From the NCBI GenBank assembly GCA_019648995.1, contig BLXT01007646.1, positions 1,862,956 to 1,899,670 of the forward strand: a stretch of 36,715 nucleotides of DNA, written 5' to 3'. Shown piece after piece: positions 4,406-36,715 of this stretch. The position numbers were made by a program, and so were the translations under genes. The notes under the pieces were generated by a model. It had not been told where the DNA came from and did not search any database. It saw only the letters and a program-made list of their open reading frames with translations. Source of the DNA: Plakobranchus ocellatus. Lineage: Eukaryota. Each line of letters opens with the position of its first letter. Position 1 is the first letter of the stretch.

Positions 4406-4496
4406 AGATCAGTGGTGAACAGCAAGCAGTTTCCTTTCAGATTTTTCTCCGCCTACGTTGCTCTTACTGAACTGGAGGAGTCCTATGAAAAAAATC
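4406..4496 (+). CDS. TEP1: TEP1 exon, TROVE: RSVVNSKQFPFRFFSAYVALTELEESYEKN. Ends in phase 1.
   Basis: Aligns with human SVIHSRQFPFRFLNAHDAIDALEAQ...NEKNR. Acceptor cttatttcag, donor c|gtaagt. Confidence 0.9.
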
Positions 4497-4630
4497 GTAA
4501 GTGTTCTGAAACATTTCTTCTGCTAATATTCTTATAATTCGAATTCAATTGAATTTTTTTTTCTGCATTTAAAATCTCCATTTGGTTTTCATAAAATAAG
4601 AGAGCCGTAGGTAACATAATATTCAAAGAG

Positions 4631-4797
4631 ACAGTTTACATGCCAAAGTTGAAGTGGCATTGCAGGTACATTTTTTCAGAAGATGTTTTTAAATGGTTGA
4701 CATACCACACTTTTTTAATGACAGTTTACATGCCAAAGTTGAAATGGCATTGCGGGTAAATTTTTTCAGAAGATATTTTTTAAATGGTTTCCAAAAA
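4631..4797. repeat. Tandem duplication, 2 copies with an exact 100-bp period, inside the intron.
   Basis: acagtttacatgccaaagttgaagtggcattgcaggtacattttttcagaagatgtttttaaatggtt occurs at 4631 and again at 4731 with a few substitutions. Confidence 0.9.
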
Positions 4798-6179
4798 TTA
4801 AAGAAAGTACTTACTAACTCCATATAATGCTGCTATACCAAATGACATGTAGTATTAGAATGCTTACCTACCAGTCAGCATTTTGCACAATCAGCATAAC
4901 AGGATCAGTAGCCCTTCAGCAGGATACTGCATTTCATTTAGCTCCACTCATATACTGCATTTTAATTGGCTATTGCATGATGGTGCATTTCAATGGGCAA
5001 CTGGAAAATGGTTTTCATTGGTTCTACCATTTAGAAAAGATTCAATGACTTGTAAATAAAATACAATCATTTTTCTTATATCCTGAATTTTAATAAAATG
5101 CAATAAAGTAAAGTTTCATAATTTTTTAAGCAAAACTGCACATCATTTGGCTATGGCAGTATGCAAACAAAATCTCCTATCAAAGGTAAAGGTGGAAGAA
5201 TTAATGTAGAGAAGAAGCTTAATCAATTTTTTGAAAATACATTAAAAAGTCTCAAGAGCATGCTCCTACTAAATAAAGCAATGGGCATTTTGCTAGCAAG
5301 GCATGATCAATGAATACTTCTAGGAGCTAACTCAATAAGCTGAAACAGAGTAAAACTGCAAGATCCAGAACAAATTCAAACAGAAGCTCAAAGAGCAGTT
5401 GTAAAAACAAAATATAATCACACAAGGCACAGTTCAAAACTACATAGGAATGACTCTGTAATGGAAAAAATAATCAGAAAAGGGAACAATTAGCGTATTG
5501 CAGATCCCTTTGGATAAGTTTCATTTTACATTTGTAGGAATAGATGCAATTAAGATATTAAGACACCTTTATTAATAGGCTTGTCAAAATTAAAGATCTA
5601 CATCAAGAACCTAACAGCTCACAATGCAAAAAAAAATTTTCAAAACAAATTGGATCTTTCTGCTATTTGAAGCGTGATTGACAGACATTGAGGACTGTAC
5701 AGAAACAAAGTGGAAATGCATCAAATAAAGTCAAGAAGCAGGCCCACGATGAAAAAGAGTTAGGAGGCATTGAGTGGTTCATGATGATGATGCTGTTAAT
5801 CACATTTTGACCCAATCATCTGCAAGAACTGGACACAAAAAATTTATGCATATTTTCTTTAAATAGATAATGCTTAATTAGAGATGCTGTGTTATGCATT
5901 TCATATTCATATTATCATTAATATTATTTGTCGCGTTACACCAGAAATAAAAGGTTGATAATACCTCTGATGTAGGACGTTGAGTTCTTTAGATCTATAT
6001 AGACCTAGCTGGATAAATAACGGAACTCTGGAGATTGTGTGAAGAGCTAAAAAAAAACTGAGTTTATTTAACTCAACAGCAGGAAATCAAATCAAACAAT
6101 ATTCACATAGGCCGTCGATAAGAAAACTAGATCTAGCTCTAAAAAATCTGCGTAATCGCTATACAATGATCTTACTGCA

Positions 6180-6310
6180 ATTTCTATAATCTCTGTGATC
6201 TCTAAAAACTCTGAGTACTCTCTCTATGAACTTTCTGCCTACTCTGTGTCTTCTCTGTGTGATCTCTGTGTTATACTGGTATATCTCTGTGTCTCAGTCT
6301 GTGTGTGATA
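6180..6310. repeat. Cryptic CTCTGTG-rich simple repeat.
   Basis: Repeated tctctgtgatctct / ctctgtgtctt / ctctgtgtgatctctgtg / ctctgtgtctcagtctgtgtgtg units. Confidence 0.7.
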
Positions 6311-6816
6311 CTTTCACCAATCTTCTCCCAGTATTTATACTTTTTTTCAAAGAAAACTCTACAAATTTCTGGAAATCTATCCCACAATGCAAACATAGAA
6401 TGTTCGAAAATGTAGATCTAGAATGTTACATCATAATCCTAAAATAACAAAAAAGCAGTCTTTAAAAAGACATTAGGGAAATCCATAGGCTAAAAATAGA
6501 ACATGAGTCATACTCGTTTACGTAATGAATTCTCTTTCGCTTTGCATAAATTAACTCCCCTTAACTGGTCCTTTCTAGAACTCTCGAGTTGGCGTGCGTT
6601 CAATAACAAAACCTAAGTCTAGTTTTTTTTGTTACATTATTACAATTACAATAGTTAAAGAAAAACATATTGCAAATCCATGAGATATTTAAATAACTAG
6701 CTGATTTGATGTAACAGAATTTCAATAAAAAATGTGGGTCATAAATGTCATGGATTTTCATTTAAAAGGTGTCTGATCAGATCATCTATTGATCAAGTTG
6801 ATTTTCTGGATTTTAG

Positions 6817-6972
6817 AAAGAGACATCATTGATGCGGCAGTGGCACAAGAACAAAGTGGAATAAGCATGGGAGGGAGAGGAAGAGGGAGAGGAGCCCCAG
6901 GTAGAGGAAGAGGAGCCCAAGGAAGAGGGAGAGGAGCAAGGGGTTCACTCCGTGGTTTGGGCATCAAAGGAG
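6817..6972 (+). CDS. TEP1: Candidate cassette exon encoding an RG/RGG box: (Q)RDIIDAAVAQEQSGISMGGRGRGRGAPGRGRGAQGRGRGARGSLRGLGIKG. It is 156 nt long, phase 1 in and phase 1 out.
   Basis: Acceptor has a good pyrimidine tract (ttgattttctggattttag) and the donor is ggag|gtaatg. Phase is compatible with the upstream exon (ends in phase 1) and the downstream exon (starts in phase 1). The GA-rich sequence is also open in a second frame and on the minus strand, so the ORF alone is weak evidence. Confidence 0.4.
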
Positions 6973-8410
6973 GTAATGTTTGAATATTATGCGTCTAACA
7001 AAAGGAAATCATATGTGTGCATATGAGTTTATACTGTGATTTTAAAAAAATATGTGAAACTGATGCTAATGGTCACATGTCTCTTCTTAGACTTTACAGA
7101 ATAGAGCATTTGAGAACGTTTTTTTTTCTTTCTTACTGCTTTTTTTTTGTTAAGTTAAAACTCCAGTATCCTGGCACAGCATCATTATATCTCTATCTAG
7201 TTTTCACCATTGCAATTCTTATTAAATACTCATTGGCTGTACCAATGATTTAAAATGTTAAAAATGCAACTTTTGAGTCATTTGGACTGGTCTTGAGACA
7301 TATATCATAGTAATCAGGCTTTAGCAATGTGAGTGTATTAATGTTGGTTTTGACCCAAAAAAAAAAAAAAAGATATCATTACCATTGAGACAACAAGCTC
7401 AGCTAGCTCTAAGCATCCAAGAGTCAAATATGTATTGGTGCAACTGGCAAAATTGCCATTTATTTTGACTGCAATAAATGTGCATGTAATTCTTCTAAAA
7501 GAGATAAAAAAAACCAACCATTTTTTTTTCATGTGATTAGGAAATTAAATTGTTTACAGTGCCATAAGTCACTTTACGCAGAGGTTCTGCTGAGTATTTT
7601 TTTTTTTCTTTACTGGACATGCCTTGCACTCTCATTGGGAAGAACTTTGTGAATTTTGTTTTTTGTGTCTAAGTTATTCCTGTTAAAGCTGAGGGACTGT
7701 CTCAATGGATAGAGCTATCTTTTATGTACCAGTAGAAGTTTGTTTCGTCATTTTCTGTAGTTTTTGAGTCAATTAGTTCTCACAAAAGACACCTGTTTCA
7801 CTTTACGTTTTCAGCCATAAAGGTACAGTTGTCTGAAAAATTCTGATTTTTTTCCATCCAAATTATCAAATAACCTTTGGGAGAGCTTTGAAGGTTTTTT
7901 TTTTATTGGGACTTAAAATAAACAAGCAGATTTTTCTGTAAAACATTGTGGTAACACCACATAAATTTTTAAAAATTCATTGAAGATTTATTTTTCCACA
8001 TAGAGATTGTTTTTGCAATGTTTACACCTTCTATTTATTTTTTGTGTATGCGAATTGGATTGGAATATAAAATTAGAACTCCTGCAGTGATTTTTTCAAA
8101 TGCACCCCGATTCATCTAGTCTCCACAGGTAGCGAAAATGTGACTTAGTACATAAAAAGAAAGATACCTTACTATGTGACAGCTGAAAGTCAGTTAATTT
8201 ATTTGTTTCATAACTTTTGGGTAACGAAAAATCTTGAACTGCAAGAGCATGATTAAGCAATGTACAGTTGTTATGAATGTTCAGACTGTATGATATTTTC
8301 GCACTATAAATTTGCATGAAGTTTTCTCAGGTAGATTTTTCTAAACATAGTAAACTCTGAAGTTCATTCAAGCTTAAAAATAGTTTTGGACCTCTCTCTT
8401 TGATACACAG

Positions 8411-8540
8411 GTGGTGTGCAGAAGGTGGCAAGTAGCAGCAATAGAAGAGGTTTTGGCAAACAATCCAAACAAAACACAGAGTCTCAGTGGTGGCTGTGGA
8501 AAAAGATGAAAAAAGAAGGCAAAAATGGCAATGAAATCAA
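8411..8540 (+). CDS. TEP1: TEP1 exon, basic linker: GVQKVASSSNRRGFGKQSKQNTESQWWLWKKMKKEGKNGNEIK.
   Basis: Acceptor tgatacacag, donor aa|gtaagt. SQWWLWKKMKKEG...EVSYDKNLIQRYRKALDTAV aligns with human KARQWKYDGEMLNRYRQALETAV across the junction with the next exon. Confidence 0.8.
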
Positions 8541-11463: not shown

Positions 11464-11644
11464 GGAAGTTTCCTATGATAAAAACTTAATCCAACGCTAT
11501 CGGAAAGCCCTTGATACAGCTGTGAAAATAGCAACAGTACATAATGTTCAGCCCATCAAAGGCAGGACAATTTTGCTCTGTGACATTGGACGTACCATGG
11601 ACAGGCCTTGTTCTAGTGCTAGAGGGCTTGGAAAACCTAGAACT
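11464..11644 (+). CDS. TEP1: TEP1 exon, start of the vWA-like part of TROVE: (K)EVSYDKNLIQRYRKALDTAVKIATVHNVQPIKGRTILLCDIGRTMDRPCSSARGLGKPRT. The 3' end could alternatively be 11650.
   Basis: Aligns with human DGEMLNRYRQALETAVNLSVKHSLPLLPGRTVLVYLTDANADRLCPKSNPQGPP. Acceptor tttacttttcag. The phase-0 donor is gtaggt at 11645 or gtaata at 11651. Confidence 0.85.
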
Positions 11645-11852
11645 GTAGGTGTAATATATAAAATCATAACTTTTACCTAAGGTACTGCCAATAGATGGGT
11701 TGTCATAATTTTTGTAATGAAGGAGAGTTAAATAGCCTGAGAAGTAATGCTATCTTTAAAAGATCGTTATTTTAGATCCTTTTTGTTGTGTACATCAGAT
11801 AAATAACTTTGGAACATAATTATGATCTGATAATGATATTATCTGAAAATAT

Positions 11853-11929
11853 TGGCGTGTGTGGTGACTTTTATTGTGATTATGATGACACAATCAAAAT
11901 AAAAGTCATTCACACGCCAATATTTTCAG
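11853..11929. repeat. Near-perfect inverted repeat (hairpin): ~32-bp arms with a ~10-nt loop.
   Basis: ctgaaaatattggcgtgtgtggtgacttttatt ... aaaataaaagtcattcacacgccaatattttcag. The arms are reverse complements except for a 2-3 nt bulge. Confidence 0.9.
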
Positions 11930-12690
11930 ATGGGTAATCATACAATAAAGAGATAAAAACCTCCTTTTTTTGGTGGTATCAAATTTAGCGTGATTTATCC
12001 TCTTTTTCACTGATTTATGTATTCCAGCCTGTGATTGGTGATCCTTACATTCACAACCAAATATTTTTTAAAAAGGGGGAACAATTTTGGAGCCTTTTAG
12101 CAATTCCTCACTTGCATGCTCAGTACCAGAGAGGTCACTGACCCTTAGGCAGGAGATTAAAAAATAGCAGGCTTATTTTAACTTTTATAGTGCATGACTG
12201 TTCACAAGTAAACAGTAGCGCAAGGCATGTATAAACACATAACATTTATAAGTTGTGAAGAAATCAAAATTAACTCAGTCTGACAATGGTGGCCAAACTT
12301 TTTTTTTTTTTTCCGAAGGCCATTGAGTAGGACATTCAAGATAGGTAATACAACGTTATAAATGCGGTATGTGGGATCATCAGATTTTATATCTTCATTT
12401 AGCCTTGTTGTTTTCATTCCAATTTTGAAATGTGCCATTTTTTTTTATTTCATTCAATGATATTTGGTTTTAATCTTTTGTCTTTTTTAATTTACTGTGA
12501 TTGTGGTGACAGAAGATGAAACCTGCAATAAGAATAATGATAATGATAAAAGAGAAATAAAAGATGAGATTCTATTTTTGTAAATCTTATTTATGAATTG
12601 TTCAATTCAGTTAATACTTCAATTTTTCACCTGTTCTTCATCTGAACTTGTTCTGTGTTGTATTTATTTTGCTGTATTTGATTATTACAG

Positions 12691-13362: not shown

Positions 13363-13428
13363 ACAAATGAGATGATCAGTGGAGTACCATACTCAGTTTT
13401 ACTTGAGAAATTGAGAGACAAGATCGAA
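13363..13428 (+). CDS. TEP1: TEP1 exon: TNEMISGVPYSVLLEKLRDKIE.
   Basis: Acceptor tttgccttccag, donor gaa|gtaagt. Phase 0 in, phase 0 out. Position is consistent with the human segment QFDENDGWSLNTFGKYLLSLAG. Confidence 0.7.
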
Positions 13429-13516: not shown

Positions 13517-13527
13517 ATCTCTCTCTA

Positions 13528-13605
<78 letters not shown>

Positions 13606-13670
13606 TCTCTCTCTCTTCTTCTCCCTCTCTGTCTTTCTCTCTCTCTCTCGCCCCCTCCCTCCCTTCCTTG
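13517..13670. repeat. Long (CT)n/(GA)n polypyrimidine-polypurine microsatellite, about 150 bp.
   Basis: Direct reading: tctctc... with occasional ccc/tct interruptions. It also creates spurious LSLS and RERE ORFs on both strands. Confidence 0.95.
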
Positions 13671-14870: not shown

Positions 14871-15140
14871 GTAGGGATTAAAAAATCTCATTAGAGAGTA
14901 TTGTTTGTCGATTAGCCACTTTAAAGATATCATTTAAGCAAATACTAGGGGTTTCAAATTTATAGCTTTAACATTTAATATTCTCTCCTTTCAATCATTT
15001 GTGCAATCAGTAATTATCACCAAAATCTAAAAGAAATCATAACAATATTACACCAAATTACAAATTTCTTCAAACCTCTCCTTTTGAATAAAGATAAGCA
15101 ATTAACACCGCATTGCAAATTATTTTTTCTGTTTTATATC

Positions 15141-15532
15141 ATGTGCTCAATCTTTTAGAACAAAGTCTTGTTCTTCATTATCAAAATATGCTCCTCCTTA
15201 TCAAAATACAATTGATTTGAGCTAGTCACCCATTTCTCCGTTTTTAAATTCTGATATATTTTGAAAGCAAACAAAACTCTTGCAACTTTGGGGTATCCAA
15301 CGTCAAGTCTGTTGATTTTGTTTTAGAGTAGAACTTGCTCATGTGCTCAATCTTTTAGAATAAAGTCTTGTTCTTCATTATCAAAATATGCTCCTCCTTA
15401 TCAAAGTACAATTGATTTGAGCTAGTCACCCATTTCTCTGTTTTTAAATTCTGATATATTTTGAAAGCAAACAAAACTCTTGCAACTTTGGGGCATCCAA
15501 AGTCAAATCTGTTGATTTTGTTTTAGAGTAGA
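15141..15532. repeat. Tandem duplication, 2 copies with an exact 200-bp period and about 95% identity, inside the intron.
   Basis: atgtgctcaatcttttagaacaaagtcttgttcttcattatcaaaatatgctcctccttatcaaaatacaattgatttgagctagtcacccatttc... starts at 15141 and again at 15341. Confidence 0.95.
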
Positions 15533-15908: not shown

Positions 15909-16729
15909 GCTCCTCTAACTCATTGTCATAGCTGTCACTTTCATTTTTAAGGTCAATATTGGTCAAATTCTTGTTTAACCTCATCAGAACTAATGATTTG
16001 TTCCAGAACATATTTGCAGAAAACAACTTTTGTTGTGGGGGTTTACCTGACAATGTCCCTGGTTACTCTAGTGCTCTCTTTATGTCTTAATTTGTTAAAA
16101 TTTCACAAAACATGCACACAAAAAAGCTGAGCTTAATGGTCACAACCATCTTTAAGCGATGACAACAGAAACAAAGTCGGTCAAATATTTTTTGAGTCTT
16201 AGGTTTTATGAATGGCTTACTGCATCCTGGTCTACTGGGAATGCAGCAGAGATCCATTGAAGAGGATCCCAGTTATCCAGGAATCTGGTCTGATGAGGTC
16301 AAACACATGAGAACCCAAATTCCAGTCTTGAGTCTTTTACTGTTGCAATAGATGTGCATTTATCTAGGGGTTGTGATCCTTGTAAAGCCTAGTAGCCTAT
16401 AAAAATTATCTTATTCTATCTTTTTTTATATACAAGATTTTGTATGATAATATTCAATGCATAATTTGTCTCCCATGTGTTTGATGACATACTTGTATAA
16501 TTTTGACCCTTTGGATGTAAAGATCCTGAGCATTTTCCTGATCAGTTTGTTTTGAAATACTAAGGTTTTAACAAAAGCTGAACAAGGATAAAGTTTGAAT
16601 GCATTTTTCTTCATTTGTAAATTTCTTTTTCTTTTCATGTTCATTTAACAAGTAAGATATGTTTCTTAAATTTTTAAGCTTGTGAAACAAACTCCACCTT
16701 CTTCATAACTTTTTTTTTCCTGTCTCTAG

Positions 16730-16906
16730 TTGGCGCACTGTTAGGATCTTCATCTCCTCAACATTTAGGGATATGCATGGAGAACGTGACCTTTTGACAC
16801 GCTTCATTTTTCCTGAACTGAGGGCTTTAGCTCGCAGAATGTTCATCAACGTCTATGAAGTTGATTTGAGATGGGGCATTACTGAGGAGCAGAGTAAAGA
16901 GAATAG
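16730..16906 (+). CDS. TEP1: TEP1 exon, first half of DUF4062: (S)[58 protein letters not shown].
   Basis: Near-identical to human [32 protein letters not shown]...IDLRWGVTEEETRRNR. Acceptor cctgtctctag, donor ag|gtaaaa. Confidence 0.95.
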
Positions 16907-17093
16907 GTAAAAAAAAGTCCTGTTTTTTCTGGCTTGTGAGATTCAACTTCACTATATTTTACATGATTTTTTTTTACTTTCACAAAAGAAAAAAGATGCA
17001 GAGATGCCTGAAGTCTTTACCAAAGTATTGAAACTGAACTATCTTTTCAAGGGATACATATCTATGTATATTTCTTCTTCTAATCCTTTTTAG

Positions 17094-17336
17094 CGCTTTG
17101 GAGATATGCTTGCAAGAAGTTTCTCGTTGCCAGCTGTTTCTTGGCTTGCTAGGTGAGCGGTATGGTTGGACGCCAGACTCTAACCAAGTGCCAGACACTT
17201 CTGAATTTGACTGGGTACGCTCTTATGCAGCAGGCGCTTCTGTCACAGAGCTGGAAATACAGTTGGGTGCTTTATCAAAAGTTGGAAACAGCAGAGATAC
17301 AGCATTTTTCTTCATTAGAGACAACTCATTTGAAAA
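17094..17336 (+). CDS. TEP1: TEP1 exon, second half of DUF4062: (S)ALEICLQEVSRCQLFLGLLGERYGWTPDSNQVPDTSEFDWVRSYAAGASVTELEIQLGALSKVGNSRDTAFFFIRDNSFE(K).
   Basis: Aligns with human [59 protein letters not shown]...ALIYFRDSSFLS. Acceptor cctttttag, donor aa|gtgagt. Confidence 0.95.
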
Positions 17337-18442
17337 GTGAGTCTGAAGAATTAAATGTTTTTTGTGGTGGTAGCTTGATATGTTAGTGTCCTAAATCACT
17401 TTGGAGTCCCATATGGCCATTAGTATTTTCCTGCCATATTCTTGCTCTCAACCAAAAAAATGTCCCTGCCTATTGAAAAAAATATATATTATTAGCATCC
17501 ATCAATCAAATTTTTTATGAAGATTCTGCTATTTATAGATGTCACCCTTGGAGGTTGTGTTCCTTTAGCTTCAGAAACAAAAAAAGACAAAAATTGTTAG
17601 CATCATTTTCATTAAGGGTTTACTTTTATCATGTAATCTTCCTATGAACAGTTTTCAATTGAAAGTTGTATGGTTTATCAGATACAGCCAGTGATCCATT
17701 ACAATCTTCTAAAGCAATATTTTTACTATACAGTGACTTTTTCTTGCTTCATTATAATTTCTAAAGATTTATGTGTAGCAGTCCCACAAAATGAGTTGAG
17801 TTGCGTTTTTGCATGATGGACTTTAAATGAAAACCATTAACCAGAGGGGTGAAAACTACTGCCCTTTCTACGGGGAGAGCTTTGTATAGACATGCTATAG
17901 ACTCTGTACATAAAGCATTGGAATTTTTTTTTTTTGCTTCAATATTTTGAGTTGATCCCAGTGATGCAGACCCACAATTTGACTCATTTTGTGAGACCTC
18001 TACACATATAGCAATTAACTTGGGTGCAATTTTGGGTTGTTTCAATTAATTTAGATTAAATTGTAGCTTGTCTTTATGATGGTAAAAGTAAAGTATTGGA
18101 TCCAGTCAATGCTCTTATCTAAAAATGTAAAAAATTTTAGTCTAGTGAAATACCTGCAGAGTTGATTTTAAAATGTGTTTATGGTTACTAATGGGCATCT
18201 CTTCTTCAACTAAGATATAAATCTATCACGGAAGAGATGTTTTACAACATTGTGTATAATTTAAATATAGTCTTCTCCATATCTCCTGCTTTCTCGCAAA
18301 TACTCTCAAGTCATAGTGAAAACAAAATCCAAGTTCAAATTAATTAAGTGCCATTGCAAACATTTGTAAATAAAATTGCTCATTTAGTAAAATAAAAGTG
18401 TTTGTTTATATTTCATAAATCAACATACTCTGATCCTTTCAG

Positions 18443-20648: not shown

Positions 20649-20831
20649 GATGAAACAATAACCGAAGATGAGCATAACAGCAACTTACAATGGGCTTATG
20701 TTGAGAGTCTTAGTGATGGTTTTGTAGGCCGCAAGGACCTTGTGAAAGATGTCATCTCCAAAATTCTTTGCATTCAGTCAGGAATTCTTTGCATATCAGG
20801 CAAAATGGGTACAGGAAAGACAGCTTTAATG
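20649..20831 (+). CDS. TEP1: TEP1 exon, start of NACHT with the Walker A P-loop: DETITEDEHNSNLQWAYVESLSDGFVGRKDLVKDVISKILCIQSGILCISGKMGTGKTALM.
   Basis: GKMGTGKT at 20799-20822 fits the GxxGxGKT pattern. Aligns with human HGRLSLVTGQSGQGKTAFLASLV. Acceptor tttctgtatag, donor atg|gtgagt. Confidence 0.9.
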
Positions 20832-21503
20832 GTGAGTTTTTCCTCTCAATTTTTGTTCTATCCTCAGCTCAACCACAAAGTAGGGTTTCTGGGCAGATTT
20901 TTTAACTTTCATCTGGTCAAGTTTCTTTCAAATATATGTCCTGAGTGTTATCCTATGTCATCTCACATATAGAAAGAACAATAGTTCTGCTCTCACAATA
21001 ACAAGTTCTAAAATTATTGGTAAAAAAATGCAATAGGCATATCATAGATGTATTGGTTGAAAAATTGGCTTTTCTCTAAATGAATCAGTAATACATTTTG
21101 ACATGCCTATTTCTCTTACAGTTATCAATGCCATCCACAGCTAAATGAGATGGAATTATGGTAAAGTCAAATAAAAAAGGCCACACAAGAGGGAGATAGC
21201 TGTAATCCTACATTATTTTCCAATATATTTTTTACAAGTTTGGTTCCAAATAAAGGTGAATAAAAGAAAAACAGTTGATTAACAAGACATAAATAGAGAA
21301 CTAGAGCCAGAGCATAGATCTTAAAAAACGAATAACAAGGCAATATAAACAATAAATGTCCATATTTTTTGTTTATATGAAGCCATTTTTTTTTCACAAA
21401 CTGAATACTAATAATGTCATGTAGTAACTCCTTTAATTATATTGACCATGTATCCATCTTAACTTAATACTTCATTTGTCTTTTTCCATAATCCCCCTTA
21501 CAG

Positions 21504-21679
21504 GCATTCAGCATTTTGCAATACACCAAACTTAAACATGTTGGTGGAAGCTATGGAGTATTTCTGAACTTTGCTGGCTCAGCTCCAGGTTCAGTGAGTG
21601 TGGCAGCCACAGTGAGGAGACTTGCCCAACAGCTTAACACTCGGTTTGGCCTTGGCCACAACTTACCAGAAGACTTTCA
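21504..21679 (+). CDS. TEP1: TEP1 exon, NACHT: AFSILQYTKLKHVGGSYGVFLNFAGSAPGSVSVAATVRRLAQQLNTRFGLGHNLPEDF(Q).
   Basis: Aligns with human AFLASLVSALQAPDGAKVAPLVFFHFSGARPDQGLALTLLRRLCTYLRGQL. Acceptor cccccttacag. Donor ca|gtcagt was chosen to give the phase 2 that the next exon requires. Confidence 0.8.
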
Positions 21680-22475
21680 GTCAGTATTCGTTAGTTCAAT
21701 AAGTGCATAGCAAAAATAAGGGCACCTTTTTTTGAAACAAAATAAGAGGAAAATTCTTTCTCTTTTTTTAAGTGAAGAGGTTTAAGCTTTCACAAATCTT
21801 TTGTAGTTGCTTATTGAAATTTGTTTGTCTTGAAACTAGCCCTATGAGTTTTAAGAAATAAAGATTTTTTTTTCTTTTCACTTTTCAAAGTGAAGTATCA
21901 TGGCACACACAAAAATGCAGAAACAAAATAATTAGTTGAAGGATCCTAAGGATGCGGGATGATTGAAATAGTTGGAATAAAAATAGAGAAGACAACCACA
22001 AACTTAAAAGAATTGGAACAAAAAGTAATTAAAAGAGTAACATTATACGGTTTTGCCTTTATTATGATTTCACCATAACGAATCTTAAAATGTTTCACCT
22101 TTAATATGGTGTCATCATTACTAGCACAAACCAAAACCATGATAAAGTTGACCATCTGTAATTTTTTTTTTAAATAACAGTGATTCCCAACACAAAAAAG
22201 CCTTAAGGGTCTTATGATTAACTGCAATTGCATTTGGTGAATACCGCTAATACTATGACATGCTGTAGGATAACAGAGCAGATAAGCTACTCAAAATTAC
22301 TTTTGAATCATCTGGGTTAAAAGTTTTTTAAACTTTACAATGTTGTGGAATTAGCATAGGCCAATAAGTTTTAATATCAGTAAAAAGCTTAGAGAAATGT
22401 TTTAATCTATGATCTACAAACATTTTTTGAAAATAAAATAAACAATTTATATTCTTTGGTCTGCCATACTTTCAG

Positions 22476-22623
22476 AAACTTAATCTTTACTCTGAAGTAC
22501 TTGTTGGAAGAAGCAGCTGCTATTTGCCCCTCCAGGCTTGTCATTTTTCTGGATGGTACAGATGAAATGGACAAGACGCATCAGCCCTGCAGTCTTGACT
22601 GGTTGCCTTCTCCTTTACCAGAT
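22476..22623 (+). CDS. TEP1: TEP1 exon, NACHT Walker B: NLIFTLKYLLEEAAAICPSRLVIFLDGTDEMDKTHQPCSLDWLPSPLPD.
   Basis: LVIFLDGTDE at 22537-22566 has the hhhhDGxDE Walker B form. Aligns with human GQTQVLIIDGADRLVDQNGQLISDWIPKKLP. Acceptor ccatactttcag, donor gat|gtaaat. Confidence 0.9.
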
Positions 22624-23145
22624 GTAAATTTTGCCTTTCATAATATTTAGTTTAAATCATTTCTTGTTTGCTAAATTCTAATAATAATTTTCACTCTCTA
22701 ACTTTAACTCAATGTTAACATTTACCTATAAATTATCTTTATGCCTGAACTCAAATGCATAATTTCCCTTTTTCTCCTACACTCTCCTTTGCTTTTTTGT
22801 CTTATTTGGTATGGCGATCATAAATGATTTGAATGGCTAGCTCCTATTGAGAAAATAGAAGGTACCATGCAGAAAAGCAGACCAGGGTAACTTGTTTTGA
22901 AAATTTTGACAGGTAAGTAGTGGGAAAATGTAAAAGATAAAAACATAAAAGCATCCAAAGACAACAATTTATGACAAAAGTGTTTGGCGAGTTTGCTTTA
23001 GATCTGGCCTTGAAGTAGTAGCCATTCAGATTATATTATTTTGAAACTAGTGAGCTTCTTTCTATTGCCTTATTTTACATGCAAAAAAAATACAGATTTG
23101 CTTTATTCGTATTCTCTTTTTTTTTTCATCTTTACCAATTTACAG

Positions 23146-35051: not shown

Positions 35052-36715
35052 GTAAGTCTAGGTGTTGCTGTACCTTCAATATTTTTGGGATTTTGCCAGC
35101 TTGAAAATAGCTGGACAGATTTTCAAGTGGACTTAAAGTTTCTTCCCGCTAACAGAGCAATAATATAGCATAGATTCTGTAAGATATATTAATGTTCATT
35201 ATAAAAAGGATTGAATCTAGATAAAGAGGAAAGATGGAAAAAAAGAATCTGTCAATTAAGATGTTCTGAAAAGTAGAAATTGTCATATAGAAAAATGATG
35301 ATTGCAAATATGTATTTCTTTGTGTTAAGTAACTATAATTTGTTCAAATCAAATATGTTGGATCCGATACTGTAGTAGTTTGAATATTAAGTGCTACTGC
35401 TAGTAGAAATCAGCACCCATAAAACTGACTTGCTAAATATCTGTCTTTAATCATTTACTCTCTCTCATGCCTTAGGCAAAGCTGATAAATAAAGACAGAT
35501 ATTTAGCAGGTCAGTTTGTGCCTTATTATCAAGACAGTCAAATGAAAAGCAGCAGTGTCCTGCCTACCTATCAGCCAACTTTCTCCACAATCACAAAAAA
35601 AATCATTTTACACTCTGCTGTTTTAAAATGACAGGTCTGTTTAGCATCTTTGACATGGTATTGATTCATGCAAGCTGGCAGTATTTGGCTCTGTGTGAAT
35701 TACGTAATATTTGCAATGCTGTGATTCAAATGGCAGAAGGGATCAACTTTCAGCCGCTAGCATTTAAACGAAACACAATATTATAACATTCCCAGTGATT
35801 TCGCAGCAACTTTAACATTCATGTGAGCATTGGGTGGCTTGGTATGTTTTATGTTATAGCCTCGTGGAGAGCTGATAGGTAAATTGGTAAAAGGGCTCAA
35901 ACATAAAGTCAAATCTTTGACATCATCATACCTAATTTAATTTTGTAGCTCTGAATCAACTTCTGAGATCTTTTGTTCTTTCTTTCACCTTACACAGTTT
36001 TGTAATCATCTGTCTCCAACTTACTCTATGTTTTTTAAAATCCCATCCTTGTAATTATTGAAATATGTGAATGTTTTTTTGTTTTTGTTTTTTTTGGGAG
36101 GGGGGGAAGGGAAGAATTGAAAATGTCCTGAAATTTTATATAATACTTTTTTAAGTTAAAAAAAAAACGTCTTTACTTATCTTTAAATTGGATTGTGTGT
36201 GCTACACACAGTCAACTTTTAAAAAATTAATTTAAAAGACCAAATGTTCTATTTCCCCTTAACAAAATCCTATCATGCAGCACTTCTTTTAGTCTCTATG
36301 GTCATTTGATATATAGCACATTAACTTATCAAAGGAGAAATATGTAGAATGACAACCCTCAGGTTCAAAGATCTTTTTTTTTTTGCGTTCAGTTATTCAA
36401 GTCTATCCGAAATCGTGTTTTTGATAGTGAGGATAATGAAATCGATGATTGTAAGGTCATTCCAAACTTTTTTGTTGGTTTATACAACCAAGAATACAAG
36501 AGAATGCTACATATTTCTTGCCTATGGGTTTATGAGAGAGTTTTGTTGTTTTTTTTAATCTAATTTGGCCTTTGCAGATTGGGAAGTCTAAATTAAAATT
36601 CATTTTAATAATCTTAACAATACTTTTCTTGTTGTCTCATCTCATTGTGAATTATCCATACGAAAGGATTCATTTGTCATGTATTGCCCAAAAGAAGCAA
36701 AAAGTATAATAGTTG

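Follow-up and report, generated by a model that had tools for sequence, protein, structure and literature searches.

A very probable conserved coding exon of TEP1 in Plakobranchus ocellatus carries an RG-rich loop of the TROVE domain

The 156-nt segment at positions 6817 to 6972 of the window, the entire 36,715-nt stretch of Plakobranchus ocellatus DNA that was analyzed, is very likely a conserved coding exon of TEP1. It would contribute part of a TROVE helix followed by an RG-rich loop with a putative role in RNA binding and arginine methylation. The original prediction of a genuine TEP1 exon, with its RG box in or next to the TROVE domain, was borne out by the agreement of splice sites, reading frame, and orthologs, and it is the orthologs that point to inclusion of the exon. 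To our knowledge, no other vault and telomerase-associated protein is as poorly understood as TEP1. Its RNA ligands include vault RNA and telomerase RNA.

The window is AT-rich (approximately 32% G+C) and contains a multi-exon TEP1 gene on the + strand, the open segments of which read as TROVE, vWA, DUF4062, P-loop, and WD40 pieces. On the spliced model, Pfam gave the TROVE domain (PF05731), including the FPFRF motif, with an E value of 3.6e-55, and DUF4062 (PF13271) in the spliced exons from 16686 with an E value of 1.5e-16. The exons encoding DUF4062 lie at 16686 to 16907 and 17038 to 17337. A P-loop-like GKMGTGKT and WD40-like segments (GHS, WD) were seen at 20649 to 35052, where NACHT and WD40 are a by-eye reading. 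Homologs matched by the window protein carry the name telomerase protein component 1. Nine exons, between 3088 and 14114, join in a single frame when the 156-nt segment (here the RG exon) is included, and the earlier claim that it fits with phase 1 on both sides between the exons at 4406 to 4496 and 8411 to 8540 held. The relevant features of the gene are as follows.

4406..4496, + strand: TEP1 exon encoding RSVVNSKQFPFRFFSAYVALTELEESYEKN, with a phase-1 end (C/gtaagt); FPFRFFSAY is invariant in TEP1 homolog alignments
4497..6816, + strand: phase-1 intron splitting a Gln codon (C/AA); its position is conserved across invertebrate TEP1 genes
6817..6972, + strand: RG-box exon of 156 nt, encoding (Q)RDIIDAAVAQEQSGISM, then GGRGRGRGAPGRGRGAQGRGRGARGSLRG, then LGIKG; collinear with scallop, Solemya, and other orthologs
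6817..6869, + strand: helix piece of the RG exon, Q-RDIIDAAVAQEQ...; the motif Q-x-(D/x)-I-(I/V)-x-x-A is common to orthologs
6878..6937, + strand: 21-nt tandem repeat in 2.9 copies (TRF), three GRGRGA(P/Q/R) heptads, the core of the RG box
6973..8410, + strand: extra phase-1 intron (G/GT), found only in the window; a single exon at six other loci
8411..8540, + strand: exon encoding GVQKVASSSNRRGFGKQSKQNTESQWWLWKKMKKEGKNGNEIK, a WWx.KK.K basic/aromatic patch, with a phase-2 end; patch and phase-2 donor conserved
11464..11644, + strand: exon encoding EVSYDKNLIQRYRKALDTAVKIATVHNVQPIKGRT..., the last TROVE helix and the start of vWA; the Pfam TROVE envelope runs through the helix

Simple and tandem repeats were also observed in the window. 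Microsatellites, (CATA)15 and (TA)23, stand at its start (1 to 60 and 90 to 136), and a (TC)67 microsatellite at 13518 to 13649 lies directly downstream of the exon at 13363 to 13428. An intronic 200-nt unit is duplicated in tandem at 15139 to 15532 (2.0 copies, 96% identity), with an open frame of about 55 codons per copy on the minus strand. The intron upstream of the RG exon holds a 64-nt direct repeat (4630 to 4693 and 4720 to 4783, 92% identity, 90-nt spacing).

The RG exon comprises 52 codons and has phase 1 at both ends. Its acceptor reads ...gattttctggattttag/AAA at 6817 (attttag/AAA), and its donor, after 6972, reads GAG/gtaatg. The entry codon joins the C of 4496 to AA, giving CAA (Gln), and the exit codon joins G to the GT of 8411, giving Gly. 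The translation is (Q)RDIIDAAVAQEQSGISMGGRGRGRGAPGRGRGAQGRGRGARGSLRGLGIKG(G), the same peptide that had been written down beforehand. Nine RG dipeptides occur within 29 residues, and the exon therefore has the three or more closely spaced RG repeats by which an RG/RGG motif is recognized. The RGG triplets of a strict RGG box number 0 in the window peptide. Because there are nine RG dipeptides and no RGG triplet, we describe the motif as an RG (GRG) box and not as a strict RGG box. The repeats, previously given as units of about 27 nt, were resolved by TRF (6878 to 6937) into a period of 21 nt with 2.9 copies and 87% matches, corresponding to GRGRGAx heptads. The GRGRGA cores show three differences, all of them synonymous changes at third positions.

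Splice sites were scored with a crude home-made consensus matrix, not MaxEntScan, which supports a rough ranking only. By that ranking, the donor of the RG exon is above the median and the acceptor is the weakest among the nine exons (-3.9), such that the expectation of a good donor was confirmed and that of a good acceptor was not. An internal GT at window position 6900 (CCA G/gtagag), with a donor score about equal to that after 6972, would give a phase-symmetric exon of 84 nt holding the first RG heptad only.

The purine-rich repeat of the RG exon contains no stops in any frame, and an open frame by itself is therefore weak evidence for coding. This bears on a different reading of the segment, also raised in the original prediction, as GA-rich, exon-like intronic sequence that splicing always leaves out: the repeat would supply part of the open frame at no cost, and the acceptor is weak. 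We enumerated AG...GT segments that preserve the frame, are free of stops, are at least 60 nt long, and have an acceptor score of at least -4 and a donor score of at least 0, thresholds taken from the splice scores of the RG exon itself. Within 4497 to 8410, the RG exon alone qualified, plus its shorter variant with the donor after 6900. The antisense control, covering the whole 36.7-kb strand, gave 8 qualifying segments, 0 of them of 150 nt or more, and thus nothing comparable to the RG exon.

Genomic loci from six other sources were compared with the window: Solemya (L001), a Logan contig (L002), amphioxus (L003), and large ENA contigs (L004 to L006). For scallop, the evidence is from protein only. 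The end of the upstream exon, the start of the next exon, the residue of the split codon, and, where listed, the peptide of the box are given for each locus.

Window: AAT C/gtaagt; ttttag/AA AGA GAC ATC ATT; Gln
Solemya (L001): GCT C/gtaagt; ttgcag/AA CAA GGA ATC ATA; Gln
L002: AAT C/gtaaga; taacag/AA CAG AAC CTA ATA; Gln; RG/RGG box RGHGGRGRGGRGRGRGGSRG
L004: AGT C/gtaagt; gtgcag/AA CAA AGG ATA ATT; Gln; RG/RGG box RGRGGGRGRGRG
L005: ACT C/gtaagt; ttgcag/AG CAA AAG CTA GTG; Gln; RG/RGG box RGRGGGRGGGRGRGRGG
L006: AAC C/gtaagt; taatag/AG GAA GAT ATT GTA; Gln; RG/RGG box RGGRGGRGRGGGGGRGGRGGRG
Amphioxus (L003): GCA G/gtatgt; ttatag/AA TCT GGA; Glu; RGG box, in frame, GRGRGRGRGGGRGGGRGRGRGRGGRGG

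The phase-1 intron before the RG exon is at the same position in all seven loci, with a split Gln codon in six and a split Glu codon in amphioxus, which has the RGG box and no helix piece. At all six other loci, the exon after this intron encodes an RG or RGG box, RGG being present in L002, L003, L005, and L006. The Arg codons of the box are AGR in the window and mixtures of CGN and AGR at the other loci. Since these codons vary and the RG peptide is kept, what is conserved is the protein and not a GA-rich DNA element. Conservation of the intron position, phase, and split codon, turnover of the Arg codons under a retained peptide, and the finding that a protein without the RG exon would miss a stretch that every invertebrate ortholog in the comparison has together make a never-spliced intronic sequence extremely improbable.

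It had been suggested that skipping the exon would restore a conserved EKNR junction. Five other loci share the phase-1 intron and the split Gln codon (C/AA or C/AG), and the conserved junction is therefore the one with the exon included, in which the Gln codon split in six of the seven loci is followed by xDI(I/V)xAA. The EKNR produced by skipping is, as judged from these sequences, a coincidence.

At the six other loci, one exon extends from the phase-1 acceptor up to a phase-2 donor that immediately precedes the E(V/T)xYD...RYRKALD exon; for Solemya, L004, and L005, both the RG box and the WWx.KKK patch lie within it. In the window, the same content (helix piece, RG box, and WW patch) is spread over 6817 to 6972 and 8411 to 8540, with the phase-2 end at 8540. 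The extra intron has the borders GGA G/gtaatg ... acacag/GT GGT, and it is required, because reading through past 6972 meets a stop three codons on, at 6981 to 6983. On the comparison of loci, one phase-1-to-phase-2 exon with helix piece, RG box, and basic patch is the ancestral arrangement, which the second phase-1 intron, 6973 to 8410, would have split in the lineage of the window.

Several further observations were made at these loci. The Branchiostoma floridae sequence (CM022888.1; L003, reversed, approximately 11700 to 12680) carries an NCBI model, P0054, of 656 amino acids with an odd W/A-rich tail (AAEWAGTWKRAWRRAWWWAWQG, then a stop), and a further model, P0058, begins 23 nt beyond it. 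An acceptor about 20 nt upstream of the annotated one, cttatag/AA, gives a 27-residue RGG box in frame, in an exon that ends AT/gtaagt in phase 2. The B. floridae TEP1 gene thus appears to be mis-split because the wrong acceptor was annotated in the RG exon. At 8100 to 8330, L006 has a second RG box (ARGRGRGGRGGRGVPRGRGRGRGG), which directly follows KYNKDSSKSKKKK and belongs to another TROVE loop. The equivalent of that exon in the window, 1458 to 1607, encodes KYNKESSGKKKKAKEKK...DSDSSDSDEE, which is Lys-rich and then acidic/Ser-rich and has no RG. L002 (Logan ERR14113986 contig, 2,707 nt) is a compact TEP1, with FPFRF, RG, vWA, and DUF4062 exons within 2.7 kb; its vWA exons are fused, whereas those of the window are separate.

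A profile-free scan of 1.84 billion representative proteins, with the exon at 11465 to 11644 as the query, led to full-length TEP1 proteins. Named matches were from Mizuhopecten yessoensis (XP_021378535.1), Solemya velum (KAL5022413.1), Mya arenaria (WAR22045.1), Anneissia japonica, Lytechinus pictus, Priapulus caudatus, and Macrostomum lignano, and among the named matches of that scan the bivalves are the closest relatives, with other sequences scoring higher. A word-indexed protein search with the spliced 126-amino-acid peptide of three exons (the RG exon and the exons on either side) returned no match. With the 400-amino-acid model it returned only proteins of up to 694 amino acids, with no close relative, and missed full-length TEP1s that are in the collection. 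In alignments, the stretch from FPFRFFSAY to RYRKALD is collinear with the orthologs when the RG exon is included.

Window: LEESYEKNQ-RDIIDAAVAQEQ...GRGRGRGAPGRGRGAQGRGRGARG...QWWLWKKMKK, beginning RDIIDAAVAQ after the Q
Scallop XP_021378535.1: LEKDYEKSQ-SDIVEAAEAAT...GRGRGSGRGTRGSSRGARGSGRG...MWWLDKKKNK
Solemya KAL5022413.1: LEKDYCKAQ-QGIIEEACVNL...RGRGVINRGQGRGRGRGRGRDRGARG...NWWLDRKKKR

The bivalve proteins XP_021378535.1 and KAL5022413.1 share with the window the TROVE, vWA, and DUF4062 domains (by Pfam) and NACHT- and WD40-like exons (by eye). In the linker they share EKxQ, the helix piece, the RG box, and the WWx.KK patch, and Solemya also has the phase-1 intron with the split Gln codon. 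A WWL, WWF, or WWI and K-rich motif is kept in scallop, Solemya, L004, and L005. The window differs from the bivalve TEP1s in its extra phase-1 intron inside the RG/WW exon, in a stretch from RG box to WW patch that is about 23 residues longer, and in the regular (GRGRGAx)3 triplication. The helix-piece motif is shared with scallop, Solemya, Mya, L002, L004 to L006, and the crinoid Anneissia. Mya keeps the helix piece (QAAIIAEAEEM). A Lys-rich run stands in place of RG in Mya, echinoderms, and many protists, and the length and content of the loop vary widely. Echinoderms and vertebrates are without an RG box. Of the 139 TROVE/TEP1-like homologs whose loop was readable, at least 12 have RG-rich runs in it, among them the flatworm Macrostomum (P0182) and many environmental sequences.

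Vertebrate TEP1 has the same domain order as the window, and the loop that joins its FPFRF and RYRxAL helices is likewise long and basic. The shark-, teleost-, and mammal-type sequences differ from the window in having almost no RG, with at most one short run (P0238), and their basic patch is Arg/Lys-rich, as in PKGRPRF or RYGKRF. The linker of human TEP1, which we take to read NEKNRPRRRF, had been equated with the window EKN. The vertebrate-type homologs P0056, P0168, and P0180 have no EKNR directly after the LE..L helix, and their basic patch falls opposite the RG-box zone in the alignments, some 20 residues farther along. The presumed human EKNRPRRRF is thus not positionally equivalent to the window EKN.

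These comparisons bear on the claim that the exon is a lineage-specific RG cassette inserted into an ancestral EKNR linker, a scenario to which the superficial likeness of the skipped form, ...YEKNR-GVQKV..., to the presumed human ...NEKNRPRRRF had lent appeal. The same content occurs in scallop (known from the protein only), Solemya, L002, and L004 to L006; an RGG box is present in B. floridae; and the split Gln junction is shared with Solemya and further loci, with Glu in amphioxus. The vertebrate-type basic patch lies opposite the RG zone and not opposite the window EKN. We looked for a second copy of the RG exon in the window and saw none, nor did we see transposon-like repeats around the exon or in the introns. 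A lineage-specific insertion has next to no probability and was rejected, as it is refuted by the orthologous loci.

Returning to the conserved exon, we considered its place in the TROVE fold. The Pfam TROVE envelope covers residues 1 to 248 of the 400-amino-acid model and extends through the RG exon as far as the RYRKALDTAV helix. Because the envelope spans the RG exon, the RG box is a loop inside the C-terminal end of TROVE and not an inter-domain spacer. No structure of a TEP1 TROVE domain was found in the PDB by sequence. An AlphaFold model, built on a 37-hit alignment, was considered for P0006, a TEP1-like distant homolog of the window protein with GRGRAPP repeats in the loop. The model has a mean pLDDT of 80.8 and is confident outside residues 368 to 451. 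Helices at 323 to 346 and 354 to 368 precede the RG loop and a helix at 474 to 495 follows it; residues 368 to 451, which hold the RG repeats, have pLDDT values below 50 and no secondary structure. The fold matches the TROVE/Ro60 structures 9kop, 9l5y, 2nvo, and 1yvr. By analogy with this modeled homolog, the RG loop of the window protein is probably disordered. Ro60/Rsr proteins (TROVE plus vWA) agree with P0006 in the TROVE-vWA fold, as modeled. Ro60-type matches, with E values of about 1e-17 or weaker (for example, P0073 and P0075), have a short connection at the point of the RG loop, and the long basic loop is, in comparison with Ro60, a TEP1-type feature.

The first third of the RG exon probably continues the TROVE helix after FPFRFFSAY. 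The rest, (GRGRGAx)3 with flanking RG dipeptides, would form the loop before the last TROVE helix (LIQRYRKALDTAVKIA) and vWA, and the next exon would add the Trp/Lys-rich patch WWLWKKMKK after the RG box. The loop would most likely act as a flexible, positively charged arm beside the TROVE ring, giving low-specificity affinity for the RNA ligands of TEP1 (vault RNA, telomerase RNA, and other small RNAs). It would likely be a substrate of arginine methyltransferases (PRMTs) and is a possible Tudor ligand. RNA binding and arginine methylation are proposed here from what is known of RG/RGG motifs: such repeats are established RNA-binding, PRMT-substrate, and Tudor-ligand motifs, and the GRG/ARG context of the window box resembles known PRMT substrates and Tudor ligands (PMC9718894). 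Close RG repeats likewise lie in a disordered region beside a folded RNA-binding module in FMRP, nucleolin, fibrillarin, Sm D1/D3, and the N termini of PIWI proteins. The window box differs from those of RG/RGG proteins in having nine RG dipeptides without RGG triplets and in being an internal loop of TROVE and not a terminus.

The exon could be real and its RG repeat nonetheless a neutral, low-complexity filler, with loop length and positive charge being what matters and RG drifting by slippage. The window box is a recent 21-nt triplication (87% identity), loop length and content vary, and Lys-rich runs take the place of RG in Mya, echinoderms, and many protists. Such filler is plausible, because Mya, echinoderms, and vertebrates lack RG character, although we regard it as somewhat unlikely. 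RG runs recur in precisely this loop across molluscs, amphioxus, a flatworm, and many environmental homologs, and its retention with different codons suggests selection for RG itself. The three repeat cores differ only synonymously, but those differences number just three. As the RG box is not universal, RG character may be dispensable, or it may be one way of keeping the loop basic.

Whether the conserved exon might also be alternatively spliced, to give RG-plus and RG-minus TEP1 isoforms, is a separate matter. The extra phase-1 intron splits the ancestral exon in such a way that the RG part is symmetric and skippable in principle: its length is a multiple of 3, it has phase 1 on both sides, and skipping keeps the frame (c plus gt, Arg). 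The acceptor is the weakest of nine, and the internal donor after 6900 gives a symmetric 84-nt variant. Skipping would, however, cost the protein the helix piece QRDIIDAAVA as well, a piece that even the RG-less Mya and Anneissia conserve, and this loss argues against a functional, "ancestral" skipped form. At the six other loci, loss of the RG exon (phase 1 to phase 2) would shift the frame, and in the one case of annotated TEP1 isoforms encountered, Lytechinus X1 and X2, the difference lies in the WD40 region and not in the RG loop. We consider an alternatively spliced cassette unlikely. More doubtful still is the fuller scenario in which an RG/RGG box that is old in TEP1 and was lost by vertebrates came, through the new phase-1 intron, under a splice-controlled switch between RG-plus and RG-minus forms. 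If true, such a switch would yield different RNA-binding or methylation-dependent states of vault/telomerase-associated TEP1.

The DUF4062 domain of human TEP1 has been described as a TIR-like NADase in two preprints (10.64898/2026.05.01.722283; 10.64898/2026.09.21.753143), one of which suggests that the NADase may be regulated through RNA bound by the TROVE region. The RG loop is not discussed in either preprint, and full-text searches gave no paper that connects TEP1 and an RG/RGG motif. Public databases already contain predicted proteins with the TEP1 RG box. The extra intron is a minor, lineage-specific addition to what is otherwise an ordinary conserved exon with a low-complexity motif. 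In practical terms, the comparison validated the gene model here, showed the skipped form to be nonancestral, and exposed what appears to be a mis-split TEP1 model in B. floridae. For the family, many invertebrate TEP1s have in their TROVE domain a conserved RG box that is a candidate for an auxiliary site of RNA binding and methylation, one that studies of vertebrates only would overlook.
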